DNA of 54,470 nt from an uncultured bacterium. Its GTDB lineage: Bacteria > Eisenbacteria > RBG-16-71-46 > CAIMUX01 > WJJG01. Shown piece by piece: positions 40,150-46,522 of this stretch (positions are counted from its first letter, which is position 1; each line of letters opens with the position of its first letter). Made by a program: the position numbers and the translations under genes. The stretch is taken from the NCBI GenBank assembly GCA_964388535.1, contig CAYMBA010000002.1, positions 1-54,470 on the forward strand. Reading direction: 5' to 3'. Below the pieces are notes generated by a model. The model saw nothing but the letters and a program-made list of their open reading frames with translations, was not told where the DNA came from and did no database searches.

Positions 40150-40513
40150 CGTACACTCCTTAGTGAGAAGGTCAATGTCACTGACCGGATCGTAAGGGGC
40201 GCGGATTTTTAGGCAGGGAGATACACAAACCGATGCGGGCTCGGCCTGATGGCCGTCCCAGACGAGTTATCCGACGGGTGGACCAAATAACAACACGGGC
40301 TTGCGTAAGCATCCCATAGGCAGCTTCGGTCCGCCCTGACGCTCCGTGCCCCCGGTGCGTTCCCGTCTCCAGTCGAGAAGAGGATAGCACCGGCCGCGCC
40401 CCTTCACTACATACTAATAACACCTCGCTGATGCGGACGGGGTCAGCGAGGCATTTCGACGAGCTTGCAGCTTCCCTGGGTTCCGCCATAATGATTGAGC
40501 GTCCGAGCCGCCG
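40150..40513 (-). ncRNA. Candidate IS110 5' non-coding (bridge-RNA-type) transcript region
   Basis: Long non-coding flank upstream of the transposase, with local stems CTCGCTGA/TCAGCGAG (40424-40431/40443-40450) and CCGCATA/TATGCGG (40509-40535). The only ORF here (40178-40516) looks spurious. Confidence 0.35.
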
Positions 40514-40544
40514 CATAGCTCGAGGGCGTTATGCGGAGTAGCCT

Positions 40545-41423
40545 ATGACACGAGAAATTGGACCCCAATATGATTTAGATGACCCATTCAAGGCGGCCGC
40601 TAGGCTCCATCAGTCCAACTATCGGGCGAAGGTTCTTGATGTCGAGTATTCGGATTATGGCAACCGATTGACTGATGCTGATGGTCGCGCTTTGCTGAAT
40701 TACTACGACGACCTTGGTGTTCGTGAGGCTTTGCGGCGGAGGTATCCGCAGTATTCCAAGCGGCGTGACGCTGACCTGCTTAGAAGCGAACACATACCTC
40801 TCAACGTGCTGGCTCCACTTGCAGGACGACCAGACTTGGCCCGGATGATTATCAAAAGTGCTTTCGAACAGAAACTGGAGGGACCGTTCGAGCTGAGGTT
40901 CGAATGGGCACCAGAGCCGAAACACAATTACCTCGACGATATGACCTCCATTGATGCTTATTTACAGGGTATTGGCAACGATGGCAAACTCGTTGGCATT
41001 GGTGTTGAGGTGAAATACACAGAGCGCGGGTACAGAATCGGAAAATCAGAGGCCGAGCGTGTCCATGATCCGAGTTCCACCTACTGGACCGTTACACATG
41101 AGGCTGGCTTATTTGCGGAAAGTGAGCTTGGCGACCTGGCAGAGGACGACCTGCGGCAAATCTGGAGAAACCACCTACTTGGATTGGCAATGGTTGGTCG
41201 CGGTGATATCGCAAGGTTCGTGTCAGTGACGCTGTATCCATCCGGAAACATCCATTTCACCCACGCTCTGGAGAAGTATCAGGGCTACCTGAAGGATGGC
41301 GCGCGGAGTAGCGTTTGCGGTTGCACATTCGAGCGTTTCATCGAATGTATTCGCGGTGACCATGAGATCGAGAAATGGAAGCAGTTCTTGACAGAGAGAT
41401 ATCTGATTGAGCAGCCCGCATAA
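40545..41423 (+). CDS. PD-(D/E)XK-like (restriction-endonuclease-fold) protein, cassette ORF
   Basis: TSIDAYLQG...LVGIGVEVKYTE fits D...(E/D)xK. GGAG lies 8 nt before the ATG, and the stop TAA lies inside the following attC-like inverse core. Confidence 0.55.
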   Translation: MTREIGPQYDLDDPFKAAARLHQSNYRAKVLDVEYSDYGNRLTDADGRALLNYYDDLGVREALRRRYPQYSKRRDADLLRSEHIPLNVLAPLAGRPDLARMIIKSAFEQKLEGPFELRFEWAPEPKHNYLDDMTSIDAYLQGIGNDGKLVGIGVEVKYTERGYRIGKSEAERVHDPSSTYWTVTHEAGLFAESELGDLAEDDLRQIWRNHLLGLAMVGRGDIARFVSVTLYPSGNIHFTHALEKYQGYLKDGARSSVCGCTFERFIECIRGDHEIEKWKQFLTERYLIEQPA

Positions 41424-41475
41424 CAACAGCATGCAGCGGACGGCTATACGCCGCCGCTGATGCTGAGCGTTAGCC
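41418..41475 (+). other. attC-like recombination site 1 (58 bp)
   Basis: GCATAAC (41418-41424) ... GTTAGCC (41469-41475). The arms pair as CAGCAT/ATGCTG, CAGCGG/CCGCTG and CGGC/GCCG around the loop TATAC. Unpaired G41433 and A41440 occur only on the inverse-core arm. Confidence 0.65.
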
Positions 41476-41636
41476 GCCATGATGCCTCGCCCGGAGGATA
41501 GTTTCTGATAATCCGACCTGGAGATCCGTCTGTCGATTGGCAGGCACTTCAACCTCAAACCGACCATAAGCGGGTCCTGATTGTTGAAGGGCTCAATCCC
41601 AGATCCGTTGGGTCCATCTCAGAGGAGATTCTGTCG

Positions 41637-42164
41637 GTGGAGGTTGCAGGGCAGCTGGCACTTCGCCGAACTCAGCTTCTGGAATCACCTGAGCTCGGGG
41701 ACAGAAGTTCAGTAACCGTTGTCTTTCGAGATACCTTCCTTCCACATAGCCATTTCGATATAACCGACGCCTACAATATCTCAGTCGCCTATAAAGGCAC
41801 CGCAGTGGCAGGTAAGAAACAAGTGGCTGGCGGGAAAGTCATAGCAATAAGGGCTGACCTCCGAGCTCCAGTTTTTGATGCCCACTCGATAGAAATGGTT
41901 CTTCGCCTTCTTCCTCTTACGGATGATTATGTTGCGGAACTACCTGTTTTTCACGCGGCCCGCGGAGAGCGAATGATGGTGACCTTGCAGGCGATCGGCC
42001 GCGAAATCGTGACGGATTCCACGGGCTCGTTAGATGCGTGGAAAATTCGAACCGAATGGGATGGAGTGACGCAGTATTATTGGAGAGGCGTTGAAGATCA
42101 ACAACTAGTCAGGCAATCTTCAAGGCTGAAAGCAGGAGTGTATCTTGAGTTCGCGCGGGGATGA
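41637..42164 (+). CDS. Hypothetical protein (175 aa), cassette ORF, GTG start
   Basis: GAGGAG lies 9 nt upstream of GTG 41637. The translation is beta-rich and protein-like. No motif. Confidence 0.5.
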   Translation: MEVAGQLALRRTQLLESPELGDRSSVTVVFRDTFLPHSHFDITDAYNISVAYKGTAVAGKKQVAGGKVIAIRADLRAPVFDAHSIEMVLRLLPLTDDYVAELPVFHAARGERMMVTLQAIGREIVTDSTGSLDAWKIRTEWDGVTQYYWRGVEDQQLVRQSSRLKAGVYLEFARG

Positions 42165-44796: not shown

Positions 44797-45050
44797 GGAA
44801 ACACCTCACTGTGTATATAATGGAGTTGCCCGCGCTAGTGAGATACGGTCTTCAAAGACCAATCAACTGTTCGGGCTGCAGGTAGAAAGGACACGGCGAT
44901 CCATGCTCCAGCACGGTCTTCGAGACCAGCGGACCTTCGATCTGCCGTGTCCACTTTTAATATACTAGCGGACCGGGGGTGAGGCGTCCGGGGCAAGCGA
45001 AGGTGTAATGAGGCAAGGAGAGCGGCCAGCCAAGGCGAATGCCCCGGCAG
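44797..45050 (-). ncRNA. Candidate IS110 5' non-coding (bridge-RNA-type) structured region
   Basis: The long-range stem GGACACGGC (44889-44897) / GCCGTGTCC (44944-44952) encloses the hairpin GGTCT-TCG-AGACC (44915-44927). A further hairpin GGTCTT-CA-AAGACC lies at 44847-44860. Confidence 0.4.
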
Positions 45051-45091
45051 CTTAGCTCGATGCCGTAAGGCAGAAAAGCAAGGGTATAGAT

Positions 45092-46027
45092 ATGGGTAAG
45101 AGATTCATCCTCTTTTGGTCGCGGATCAAGCGTTGGATAAATACCTTCCCTACCAGCTTACTTCTCGGGTTTTTGCTTGGCATTATCTTCGCCGTAATTC
45201 TCCAAAAATGGAACGTATTCATTGCCGGCGTTCTCTTGGGCGTAGTTATCGAGCAATTGCTGCTTGGTATCAGGACCACTGTCGCTCATTGGATGGATAC
45301 TCATCCAATTCGTAGGCTACTTGGTACTATTGCAGCGGATGAAGTCTGCTACATCTATTTTTCTTCCTATCTCCGTGATCTCAGCAGGCCATCTGAATTC
45401 AAGCTAACCCGCTGGACAGGCGAGAAATCCCAAGGTGAAGAGCTAATTGAAGGTCCTGCATTCGTACTTGGCGAAGGAGACGCCCTGGCGCTGGCTTCAA
45501 TTCGCCAACTCCTCGCTCGAATCAAAAAGAAACAAGACCAGATAAAGGTCGAGAGGGCCGAAAGGTATATTGACAAATGGGGAGAGGGTTGCTTTTGCAT
45601 AGGAGCCCATAATCATAAAACCCGCGTTGTGCTGAGCAAGTTTAATAACCCTTACTTTGTTTTCGATGACAACTATGGCGTAATTACGTCGCCAGATCCT
45701 TCAGCACGCGTCACTGGGCAAGATGGCAAGCCTTATAGACTTGGTGTGTATATTGAGGAGTCACATGACTCGGAGCCTACTGACTATGGCATTCTCCTTA
45801 AGCTCACCGATCAATTCCATTCTTCTCGGAAGACAGTCTTTGTGGTCGCGGGTATTGGGCCAGCAGGTACTAGTGGTGCAGCATACTATCTGCTCAAGAA
45901 TTATGAAGAGTTGTCACAACTTGGCGATCAGTTTGGCGTGTTGGTTCAAGTTCCCAGTGGATACCAGTCTGCAAGACAGGTGGAGTTCCATGAGGTTGCT
46001 CGATATTATGTCCCACTTGAGGAATGA
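45092..46027 (+). CDS. Membrane-anchored hypothetical protein (311 aa), cassette ORF
   Basis: Two N-terminal TM helices (LLLGFLLGIIFAVIL, FIAGVLLGVVIEQLLL), then a soluble domain ending TVFVVAGIGPAGTSGAAYYLL (Rossmann-like strand-loop). Confidence 0.65.
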   Translation: MGKRFILFWSRIKRWINTFPTSLLLGFLLGIIFAVILQKWNVFIAGVLLGVVIEQLLLGIRTTVAHWMDTHPIRRLLGTIAADEVCYIYFSSYLRDLSRPSEFKLTRWTGEKSQGEELIEGPAFVLGEGDALALASIRQLLARIKKKQDQIKVERAERYIDKWGEGCFCIGAHNHKTRVVLSKFNNPYFVFDDNYGVITSPDPSARVTGQDGKPYRLGVYIEESHDSEPTDYGILLKLTDQFHSSRKTVFVVAGIGPAGTSGAAYYLLKNYEELSQLGDQFGVLVQVPSGYQSARQVEFHEVARYYVPLEE

Positions 46028-46266
46028 AGGGATGTGCCATGCATAATGTTACTCCTTCTGGTCACATCGATTCGCCTCGCTGCCCAAAGTGTGGTTCTCC
46101 AATGACAAAGAAGCGTCCTTACAGGGGAGGCACTGCCTCATTTTGGGAGATATATCCAGTCTCATCAACAGGATCAGCCAGCGCGTACATGTATCCAGAG
46201 CAGGAAATCTACTACTGTACCAATGAGGACTGTGGACAATCCTTGCTAGGACCTCGGCGAGACTAA
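46024..46266 (+). CDS. Small zinc-ribbon protein (80 aa)
   Basis: CPKCGS ... CTNEDCG (CxxC...CxxxC). It shares an ATGA overlap with the preceding ORF. Confidence 0.5.
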   Translation: MKGCAMHNVTPSGHIDSPRCPKCGSPMTKKRPYRGGTASFWEIYPVSSTGSASAYMYPEQEIYYCTNEDCGQSLLGPRRD

Positions 46267-46522
46267 TTCATGGTGTTTCGTCTGTTCTGCCTAACATCTA
46301 TGAAAGCGCCACAATAGTCAAGAGCCAACCCCGTTATCTCCTCCTTTTGGGAGAGTTTTCTGTATTCAGTTCACACCAGCGCCTCAAAGCCGCTCGGGCT
46401 CGCACGTGGCATTCGAGCCAAACCTCAAGGGCATACTCCTAGTTAAATGAAAAAGAGACGCTACGCGCGCACACTTCGACCTTCTCACTTCGGGGGAGGC
46501 GACATCTTGCCTGTAGTGGAAG

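Follow-up and report, generated by a model that had tools for sequence, protein, structure and literature searches.

Clusters of integron cassettes that stand apart from an integrase gene are known as CALINs (clusters of attC sites lacking integron-integrases), defined operationally by two or more attC sites clustered in 4 kb and the absence of an intI over the same distance, and, like the locus described here, they are associated with insertion sequences (IS) (Cury et al. 2016, PMC4889954; Neron et al. 2022, PMC9024848). We analysed a stretch of 54,470 nt from an uncultured bacterium (NCBI GenBank assembly GCA_964388535.1, contig CAYMBA010000002.1, positions 1 to 54,470 of the forward strand), referred to below as the window; the source contig is 68,121 bp long, and 13.6 kb of it lie outside the 54-kb window. 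Positions ~37453 to 46299 very probably hold about six integron cassettes that form a CALIN, with no integrase in the window, at the variable cargo site of a putative conjugative plasmid or an element resembling an integrative and conjugative element (ICE) in a probable Chloroflexota host. The assignment to the CALINs follows from the operational definition of clustered attC sites with no intI within 4 kb (PMC4889954, PMC9024848): four intact sites span 2.6 kb, and within the window no intI lies within 4 kb of the array.

Four intact and two damaged sites compare with a CALIN average of almost six attC sites, and fewer on plasmids. The array differs from described CALINs in its setting, a putative conjugative element with a predicted monoderm-type type IV secretion system and a likely Chloroflexota host, and in its attC sites, which belong in part to an environmental family of ~126-nt sites and have the extrahelical bases C and T rather than G and T. 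A first-pass annotation of this DNA had considered cassettes on a self-transmissible element unusual for this kind of host. That view is weak, as integrons in Chloroflexi (PMC4889954) and CALINs on plasmids (PMC9024848) have already been reported.

The class 1 integron arrays offer a second comparison, represented here by estX-psp-aadA2-cmlA1-aadA1-qacL (L005; L-numbers are labels for comparison contigs and loci). Both arrays are carried by replicons that are conjugative or, for the window, predicted to be so, and are built of units of open reading frame (ORF) plus attC joined at G|TT, and in both the attC sites are of unequal length (60–132 nt) with an R box, spacer and L box and two extrahelical bases 6 bp apart. 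The window array differs in having no intI1, attI1, cassette promoter Pc, 3'-conserved segment or resistance genes, and its attC sequences are unrelated to those of class 1 save for the core and the geometry.

Predicted attC sites in the window

The window was searched with two covariance models. Model R1 was built from 13 class 1 integron attC sites from plasmids and contains no window sequence. For this model 19 attC sites were aligned with MAFFT, five misaligned sites and the redundant aac(6')-IIa site were removed, and the canonical R box and L box pairs were imposed on the alignment of the remaining 13. The search was unfiltered and covered both strands of the whole window (109 kb of strand in total). 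Model R2 was built from the ~126-nt metagenomic attC family described below, whose contigs include no near-identical window sequence. The four best R1 matches in the window are all in the block, all on the + strand, and each directly after an ORF:

40413–40534, + strand: attC site S0, intact; R1 20.8 bits, E = 0.005; R2 57.4 bits, E = 1e-13
41416–41475, + strand: attC site S1, intact; R1 30.3 bits, E = 1.4e-5; R2 30.2 bits
42180–42252, + strand: attC site S2, intact; R1 21.0 bits, E = 0.0045; R2 30.2 bits, E = 5e-6
42901–43032, + strand: attC site S3, intact; R1 20.7 bits, E = 0.0055; R2 30.0 bits

The fifth-best R1 match has E = 1.5, and R2 gives S1 to S3 about 30 bits each (E ~5e-6). The first-pass annotation had proposed S1, S2 and S3 (its sites 1, 2 and 3) as attC sites, an idea to be dropped if a covariance model failed to find them. 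The search of both strands with R1 as a proxy model recovers all three among its four best matches, with E from 1.4e-5 to 5.5e-3, and adds S0, which had been missed. Some of the attC sites removed during the building of R1 were reused as held-out tests; bona fide sites among them score 18.6 and 23.4 bits compared with 20.7–30.3 bits for the window sites, and the latter thus score like genuine, divergent attC sites. The attC sites of estX, qnrVC1 and dfrA14 were missed by R1, and its sensitivity is therefore limited.

The top strands of the four sites read as follows:

S0: TAATAAC ... GCT-G-ATGCGG-A-CGG ... CCGCAT-AGC ... GTTATGC
S1: GCATAAC ... GCAT-G-CAGCGG-A-CGGC ... GTTAGCC
S2: TGCTAAC ... 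GTT-G-GTTCGG-A-CGC ... GTTAGGC
S3: GCCTAAC ... GCAT-G-AAGCCG-A-CCG ... CGGCTT-ATGC ... GTTAGGG

In the alignments to R1 and R2 all four share a layout of 3–4 bp, G, 6 bp, A and stem, so that on the bottom strand it is the 3' arm that carries the extrahelical bases. The same holds for aadA-type attC sites, which have the top strand GTT-C-AAGCCG-A, with extrahelical G and T on the bottom strand; the corresponding pair in S0 to S3 is C and T, not G and T. The AAC...GTT frame is present throughout. The full RYYYAAC/GTTRRRY consensus is found in GCCTAAC and GTTAGGC, and the other heptamers are one or two positions off; similar deviations occur in bona fide sites, such as GCATAAC in the VIM-2 attC and GTTGGGC in aadA2. 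The fold of S1 has 6+6+4 bp with two bulged bases confined to the inverse-core arm (z = −5.2, both strands), the centroid fold of the bottom strand of S3 contains the R box, the L box and the bulged C and T, and the same bulged layout of R box and L box appears in minimum free energy (MFE) or centroid folds of S1, S3 and an attC site of the related replicon L019. With the core frame, the R/L-box layout and a covariance E below 1 (with the proxy model R1) all present, we regard S0 to S3 as predicted attC sites.

The sequence details given in the first-pass annotation are borne out. All heptamers that it had listed are present at their positions, both within the sites (GCATAAC 41418 and GTTAGCC 41469; TGCTAAC 42181 and GTTAGGC 42246; GCCTAAC 42903 and GTTAGGG 43026) and outside them (GTTAGCC 37453, GTTATGC 40528, GTAAGGC 45065 and a lone GCCTAAC at 46289), and so are the distances that it gave. 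The stop codon of the ORF 40545–41423 does lie inside GCATAAC, site 1 pairs as described (6+6+4 bp, two bulged bases on the inverse-core arm only), and site 3 has GCAT, a bulged G and then 6 bp.

R2 also gave a match at 31264–31347 (+ strand; 21.1 bits, E = 0.0019), which we rejected as an attC site. It lies inside the ParA gene (30834–31709, − strand) and is probably a chance match, since the score is driven by GCTCGAGGGCGTT and the segment has few pairs and no TAAC inverse core. At gathering thresholds Rfam found a single match in the window, a group II intron at 1–126, and no attC family match. A DNA search of the block against a plasmid database returned no match.

Cassette boundaries and cassette movement

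In each cassette an attC site comes after a single + strand ORF or a pair of them, and seven + strand ORFs lie between 37.4 and 46.3 kb. Together with S0 to S3 and the two IS elements listed further below (IS-A and IS-B), the array has the following parts:

37453–37459, + strand: core-like GTTAGCC, the probable left junction and start of cassette 1
37489–38751, + strand: cassette 1 ORF, pentapeptide-repeat protein of 420 amino acids (aa) (Pfam PF00805, E = 1e-38; G+C 0.53)
40545–41423, + strand: cassette 2 ORF, PD-(D/E)XK nuclease (PDDEXK_13 / REase-ARP) of 292 aa (Pfam E = 2e-57)
41637–42164, + strand: cassette 3 ORF, DUF3108-like protein of 175 aa (Pfam E = 8.6e-13)
42329–42898, + strand: cassette 4 ORF, 189 aa, no family match (Pfam, PADLOC)
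43042–43809, + strand: cassette 5 ORF, AbiJ-like protein of 255 aa with an Abi_C domain (Pfam Abi_C E = 8e-16; PADLOC AbiJ E = 4.8e-18)
43804–43821, + strand: attC 4, 5' part, with inverse core CCCTAGC, spacer and GCT-G-GAG; interrupted by IS-B
44967–45071, + strand: attC 4, 3' part, ...CGG-A-CCGGGGG ... CAGCTT-AGC-TCGATGCC-GTAAGGC (R2 12.5 bits, E = 0.48, at 44953–45070)
45092–46027, + strand: cassette 6 ORF, 311 aa, no family match (cassette G+C 0.475)
46024–46266, + strand: cassette 6 second ORF, zinc ribbon protein of 80 aa, overlapping the 311-aa ORF
46289–46299, + strand: truncated attC, GCCTAACATCT, consisting of inverse core and spacer; right end of the array

Integron integrases (IntI) exchange strands between the G and the TT of the core, so that the 3' part of each core is owned by the following cassette, and the inverse core of a cassette should pair with the core at the cassette's own 5' start rather than with the one that now adjoins it. 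Such pairs are found along the array. GTTATGC (40528) and GCATAAC (41418) are exact complements, as are GTTAGGC (42246) and GCCTAAC (42903). GTTAGGG (43026) predicts CCCTAAC, and CCCTAGC is present at 43804 (CCCT, 4/4 variable positions); GTAAGGC (45065) pairs with GCCTAAC at 46289 (GCCT, again 4/4). Inverse cores match the start core of their own cassette at 4, 3, 4, 4 and 4 of 4 variable positions (19/20), compared with 2, 2, 3 and 3 of 4 (10/16) for the adjoining core, and 2 of 120 permutations equal the observed matching between inverse cores and start cores. Such matching is the signature of G|TT exchange and shows cassettes joined at G|TT.

Comparisons with other genomes lead to the same boundaries. 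The PDDEXK cassette 2 recurs on three unrelated contigs (L142, L143 and L144), and its neighbouring genes differ in all three. The DNA homology begins at 40524–40526, at the core, in each of them; in L142 it stops at 41473, the attC end, where the homologous attC scores 27 bits with R1, and in L144 the cassette is preceded by a different attC (20.4 bits). The coincidence of the homology limits with core and attC on unrelated contigs is direct evidence that ORF and attC move as one unit. On the 2.1-Mb contig L142 (ENA ERZ21869602) a lone PDDEXK cassette with its attC occupies 9983–10933 in a chromosome, flanked by the genes for a Zn-peptidase and a 493-aa protein; its 5' core is GTTACGC, no attC is found upstream, and it looks like a solo cassette at a secondary site. 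Homologues of the PDDEXK protein are numerous, and two of those listed have Chloroflexota-type source names (Anaerolineae, SAR202). Homologues of the cassette 1 protein, at 36–38% identity, are encoded directly after attC cores on the metagenome contigs L070 and L080, and the cassette 4 protein is identical on contigs L002–L004.

The sites also belong to a wider population. A metagenome scan with the shared right arm yielded at least 120 contigs, and on the family contigs R1 finds at least 174 sites at E ≤ 0.01, most of them 126 nt in length. At least 86 contigs, one of them from a related replicon, carry more than one right-arm motif, always on the same strand, with a median spacing of 888 bp. 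For the contigs listed, the L box of the family is 98.7% paired and 7 of 10 pairs show compensatory changes, values reached by none of 500 shuffles. S0 is a member of this ~126-nt attC family, which forms same-strand arrays. Copies of S0 with 85–90% identity stand beside other genes in L049 (two copies), L125, L041 and L036, a copy of S2 (86% identity) stands beside another gene in L025, and the S0 arms match the attC arms of L019.

To the left the array adjoins a backbone gene (34765–37173) for an 802-aa protein with relatives at 50–57% identity, and the replicons of these relatives vary in their cargo. L018 (NCBI GCA_030606145.1) shares the upstream synteny of ParA, AAA_22, a 113-aa protein and a 788-aa protein and has no attC; downstream of its 802-aa homologue it carries at 7542–17171 a SNF2/NOV_C helicase, Fic, a DUF1156 methyltransferase and DUF499, a defence-island-like set of genes. 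Beyond ParA, L019 has three attC matches that stand next to three different ORFs and have arms nearly identical to those of S0, and this array is likewise without an adjacent integrase. Within this replicon family, the position behind the 802-aa gene looks like a hotspot for cargo. The first-pass annotation had looked to related replicons for cassette-wise variation, and this is what they show: L018 is without the block, L019 has other cassettes with the same type of attC, and cassette 2 recurs alone.

The near-identical strains L002 and L003 (97.5–98.8% identity) retain the cassette order of the window. In L002 a 31-nt deletion (window 42171–42201) removes the 5' half of S2, that is, the inverse core and the L'' arm, and in both strains 16 nt of the variable centre of S3 are deleted (window 42940–42955). 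These deletions look like ongoing decay of attC sites. Both strains also contain an odd repeat of ~91–104 bp around 43905–44008, which is probably an assembly artefact.

Two sites of the window array are themselves damaged: the attC of cassette 5 is split in its L'' arm by IS-B, and that of cassette 6 is cut after the spacer. The core of attC 4 is degenerate, with GTA in place of GTT, and its right arm is homologous to the right arms of S0 and the L019 attC. The stump GCCTAACATCT at the right end is identical to the start of the L019 attC (BLAST, L019 attC positions 5–15), and high-G+C backbone lies beyond it. The ATG of cassette 5 is located 10 nt past the core; a longer reading from 42997 would begin inside S3. 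The first-pass annotation had described a lower-G+C block of five ORFs at 40513–46295. The lower G+C is confirmed (cassettes 0.45–0.53, backbone 0.65) and the array and its cassette organisation are real, but the array is longer, from 40413 at the latest and probably from 37453 to 46299, and it comprises about six cassettes with two IS110-family interruptions and the last two sites damaged. The two IS110-family elements on the − strand, the IS-split attC 4 and the identity of GCCTAAC at 46289 as the stump of a truncated attC had escaped notice.

The cargo consists of a PD-(D/E)XK nuclease, an AbiJ-like protein, a pentapeptide-repeat protein and proteins of unknown function. As to the suggestion that the array could serve as a reservoir of accessory or defence genes, the AbiJ cassette is the only match to a known defence family, and the idea itself is already in print, as defence genes in cassettes have been described (bioRxiv 10.1101/2024.07.02.601686).

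IS110-family elements at attC sites

Elements with DEDD transposases that target attC sites have been published (PMC11187229), among them the IS1111-attC group with ISKpn4, ISPst6 and ISPa21 (Tetu & Holmes 2008; Post & Hall 2009, both as cited in PMC11187229). The window array contains two elements with transposases of this kind:

38817..40415, − strand: IS-A, IS110-family; transposase 38905–40149; 266-nt non-coding region upstream of the transposase gene
43822–44966, − strand: IS-B, IS110-type, 1145 bp; transposase 43837–44796; recognised by Pfam domains and junctions

Elements of the IS110 type have a transposase with a DEDD (RuvC-like) domain at the N terminus and a Transposase_20 domain at the C terminus, a long non-coding stretch ahead of its gene and no terminal inverted repeats, and they insert at a short conserved core. 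Both transposases of the window array have the Pfam domains DEDD_Tnp_IS110 and Transposase_20. The non-coding sequence of IS-B amounts to 170 nt upstream of the transposase gene (44797–44966) and 15 nt downstream, an arrangement of the IS110 type and not of the IS1111 type (PMC11187229). IS-B is flanked by AG on the + strand at both junctions, which corresponds to a CT core in the orientation of the IS. Removal of 43822–44966 joins CCCTAGCACGCGCTGGAG to CGGACCGGGGG..., and the restored 122-nt attC aligns end to end with the L019 attC; the predicted target in the attC arm is CCGGTCCG-CT-CCAGC. By their domains and long upstream non-coding regions, and for IS-B also by the CT core, both elements can be classed as IS110-type.

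The non-coding region of IS-B is predicted to fold into two stem-loops. In stem-loop 1, GGUCCGCU corresponds to the left flank of the target together with CT, and GCUGGAGC, on the strand that faces it, to the complement of CT together with the right flank; the matches are 8 nt long. In stem-loop 2, ACAGUUG corresponds to the right IS end and ACUAGC to the complement of CT together with the left IS end. Both target matches occurred together in 12 of 20000 dinucleotide shuffles with 7-mers allowed. We infer that IS-B may have been directed to the attC arm by a bridge or seek RNA, which fits the model of PMC11208160 and PMC11187229.

On the right IS-A ends with ...CATACT (40415), directly against the inverse core of S0. 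This end resembles the ends of IS-B and of the elements in L037 and L077, and within the non-coding region of IS-A is the sequence UGUUAUU, the complement of AATAACA in the S0 inverse core. The left end of IS-A is placed between 38817 and 38880; neither the comparison with L070 nor guide matching gave an exact end. A hairpin with a perfect 14-bp stem at 38820–38852 (AGCACACGCCCTGC...GCAGGGTGTGTGCT), between the pentapeptide ORF and the stop codon of the IS-A transposase, may be the terminator of the cassette gene or a part of the right end of IS-A.

IS110-family genes are present on 7 of the 120 attC-family contigs listed. Elements at L037 851–2540 and L077 4559–6286 split the central region of an attC (GATTGTT|GTATGCTC), with the transposase opposite to the cassettes, and further array-associated elements lie at L108 387–1570 and L144 3004–4373. 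Among these four, one stands directly 5' of an intact attC, like IS-A, and one, which is degraded, follows the PDDEXK cassette at the expected position of an attC.

IS-B resembles the IS1111-attC group as an IS with a DEDD transposase inserted in attC at a fixed position and orientation, with the transposase opposite to the cassettes, and with a non-coding region RNA that has short matches to both target flanks, which for IS-B is read from the sequence only. The comparator ISKpn4 was seen in the qacL attC of plasmid locus L008. In the group the non-coding region follows the transposase gene, the inverted repeats are subterminal and the IS inserts at one attC end, whereas IS-B lies in the L'' arm at a CT core, the L037 and L077 elements in the central variable region and IS-A at the edge of the inverse core. 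IS-B thus behaves like the IS1111-attC group and lies outside its membership. With the bridge-RNA recombinases of IS621 and other IS110 elements (Durrant et al. 2024, PMC11208160) IS-B shares the upstream non-coding region with two stem-loops, one matching the target flanks including the CT core and the other the IS ends, and CT at both junctions. It differs in that its natural target is a structured integron recombination site and in that its guides are known from sequence alone. An element that appears to be attC-directed and of the IS110 type, not the IS1111 type, with readable guides, is one of the less ordinary points of this locus, although its novelty is modest.

Integrase, host and alternative explanations

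A complete integron would have an intI gene with the IntI-specific insertion, an attI site and a Pc next to the first cassette, and this is not what the window contains. The search by tblastn with IntI1 found no IntI in the window (best E = 0.86), and the ORFs flanking the array are without recombinase domains. Neither intI nor attI lies within 4 kb of the array, whether upstream of 37453 or of 40413 or downstream of 46299, R1 and R2 find no attC or attI upstream of 37453, where there is also no homology to the first site of L019, and no Pc promoter platform is present at the array. The first-pass annotation, which had reported no intact integrase adjoining the block, was right on this point both within 4 kb and, by tblastn, in the window. 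One weak match to the C-terminal part of tyrosine recombinases lies at ~340–545 (+ strand), in the ORF 30–950 (Pfam PF00589, E = 1.2e-3, 19 bits, below the cut-off; NCBIfam XerA/integron-integrase, E = 5.8e-6; tblastn with IntI1, E = 0.86), and it may be a degraded recombinase or spurious. Beside it, at 1–126 on the − strand, a segment of group II intron D1–D4 (RF02001, 85.5 bits) runs off the start of the window; it adjoins the 3' end of a gene for a 1589-aa helicase and may extend across the ~340–545 fragment. Some group IIC introns target attC sites (PMC3001079); no attC is found near this segment.

The backbone of a conjugative plasmid or ICE would be expected to encode a relaxase, a type IV coupling protein, a VirB4-type ATPase, and genes for partition and replication. 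That of the window encodes Replic_Relax (E = 8.5e-9), a TrwB_AAD_bind/DUF87 coupling protein, ParA, a primase and a DnaB-like helicase, with a weak AAA_10 VirB4-like match (E = 5.5e-4, below the cut-off). The coupling protein reaches only 24–28% identity in PLSDB, to plasmid proteins of Actinobacteria, Bacilli and haloarchaea. An alignment-based scan found homologues of the 802-aa protein in two short contigs of Anaerolineaceae metagenome-assembled genomes (MAGs); a genome scan with the single 802-aa protein found nothing. The host is probably an Anaerolineae-like member of the Chloroflexota. A second region of lower G+C (0.51–0.56) at 611–8248 (− strand), with no attC matches, encodes the helicase of 1589 aa, a DEAD/Helicase_C protein in which several S1 domains are found, as well as a protein of 413 aa that has no match and a SUKH/SMI1-KNR4 protein of 536 aa. 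The region may be a further module for cargo or immunity. At 49342–52306 (− strand) a MoxR-type AAA ATPase (bpMoxR, E = 2.6e-29) is encoded beside a protein with a weak VWA match, a pair that recalls the MoxR-vWA-beta-propeller ternary systems.

Several points weigh against the reading of ~37453–46299 as a CALIN of a Chloroflexota element. An integrase could lie elsewhere on the replicon, in the part of the source contig outside the window or beyond, and no cognate IntI is found beside any of the 120 family contigs listed. R1 and R2 are purpose-built models with a shortened calibration and not the attc_4 model of IntegronFinder. The first extrahelical base of the bottom strand in S0 to S3 is C, compared with G in class 1 sites. 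Free-energy folding is significant for S1 only, with S0, S2 and S3 no better than shuffles, and the MFE fold prefers a different hairpin for S0; of the three sites whose bottom strands the first-pass annotation had proposed to fold, S1 and S3 show the R and L boxes and bulges, and S2 and S3 fold no better than shuffles. We regard the free-energy test of such long sites as uninformative rather than negative. The left boundary at 37453 is without a recognisable partner (about 4 of 7 positions match the S0 inverse core), and the host assignment is drawn from the two short MAG contigs and protein names.

The first of these points would suit a complete integron, with a functional intI and attI on the same replicon, beyond the window or unrecognised in it, so that the lack of an integrase would be an artefact of the window. 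The 13.6 kb of contig outside the window and the recombinase-like fragment at ~340–545, near the window edge, speak for such an arrangement. We consider it improbable, because both ends of the array abut backbone with neither intI nor attI within 4 kb, on the left the conserved 802-aa gene and on the right a truncated attC followed by high-G+C sequence, and because the array of the relative L019 is without an adjacent integrase as well. The ~340–545 fragment is 37 kb away, scores below every curated cut-off, covers ~70 residues and overlaps the group II intron match on the other strand.

The ~126-nt sites could also be a separate class of repeat that mimics attC, similar to repetitive extragenic palindromic (REP) sequences or miniature inverted-repeat transposable elements (MITEs) and handled by some recombinase that is not an IntI, such as the IS110-family enzymes. 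The missing IntI on the listed family contigs is in keeping with this, as are the IS110-family genes in seven of those contigs and in the window and the first extrahelical base that differs from class 1. Most of the contigs are short pieces from within arrays, on which a single intI is expected to be missed. The sites are found by a model trained on class 1 attC sites only, they bound single-ORF units in one orientation with cassette-like spacing and the G|TT hybrid-core signature, and the IS elements interrupt sites and do not flank mobile units, all of which makes a separate repeat class very unlikely. On L124 (435–3753) the genes for a tyrosine recombinase of 290 aa and an IS91-family transposase (385 bits) stand, in this order, ahead of an ORF and an attC. 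We rejected this recombinase as an IntI, given an NCBIfam integron integrase score of 207 bits, below the 265-bit cut-off, and the pairing with the IS91 transposase; it looks IS91-associated and no clear IntI.

One could also take the palindromes for products of chance or for ordinary features, for instance terminators of transcription behind ORFs, and the heptamers for coincidence. This reading can be dismissed almost entirely: S0, S2 and S3 do fold no better than shuffles and several heptamers are off the RYYYAAC/GTTRRRY consensus, but four covariance matches fall on one strand within 2.6 kb with nothing comparable elsewhere in 109 kb of strand, no site has a T-run and all are alike in their bulges, each inverse core agrees with the core before it, cassette 2 homology starts at the core (three contigs) and stops at the attC end (L142), and hundreds of homologous sites form arrays with covariation.

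In established integron biology an integrase recombines attC sites as folded single-stranded DNA. If the array is a CALIN as we propose, each intact site, folded from its bottom strand, would form an R box, a spacer and an L box, and its extrahelical C and T would lie 6 bp apart; an IntI supplied in trans could then excise or exchange cassettes 2–4, and cassette 1 if a partner site exists. Since the array has no Pc, its genes would be expressed by read-through from the co-directional gene 34765–37173 or from the cassettes' own promoters. The array is in part disabled by the IS110-type insertions and the truncation.

The array does not overturn current understanding. It provides an example from outside the Proteobacteria of cassettes on an element whose self-transmission is predicted, detached from an integrase, in a phylum whose integrons have barely been studied, and its cassette boundaries are established by comparison with other genomes. 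Further less ordinary aspects are how large and uniform the environmental attC family is, the extrahelical bases C and T, and the lack, so far, of a cognate integrase. We speculate, quite tentatively, that a lineage of conjugative plasmids in Anaerolineae-like Chloroflexota could act as an integrase-free shuttle for the cassettes of a large and undescribed family of ~126-nt attC sites, that the C/T bases could imply a divergent IntI, and that several IS110-type bridge-RNA elements may have independently evolved guides against the L'' arm, the central region and the inverse-core edge. If true, these elements would constitute an attC-targeting guild separate from the IS1111-attC group. IS-B bears on how such elements pick safe targets and inactivate cassette mobility. 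The ~126-nt family is common in the environment, and its conserved arms (TAACATCTCGCTGG ... AGCTCGAGGGCGTTA) offer a means of retrieving cassettes and of searching for the integrase that belongs to them.

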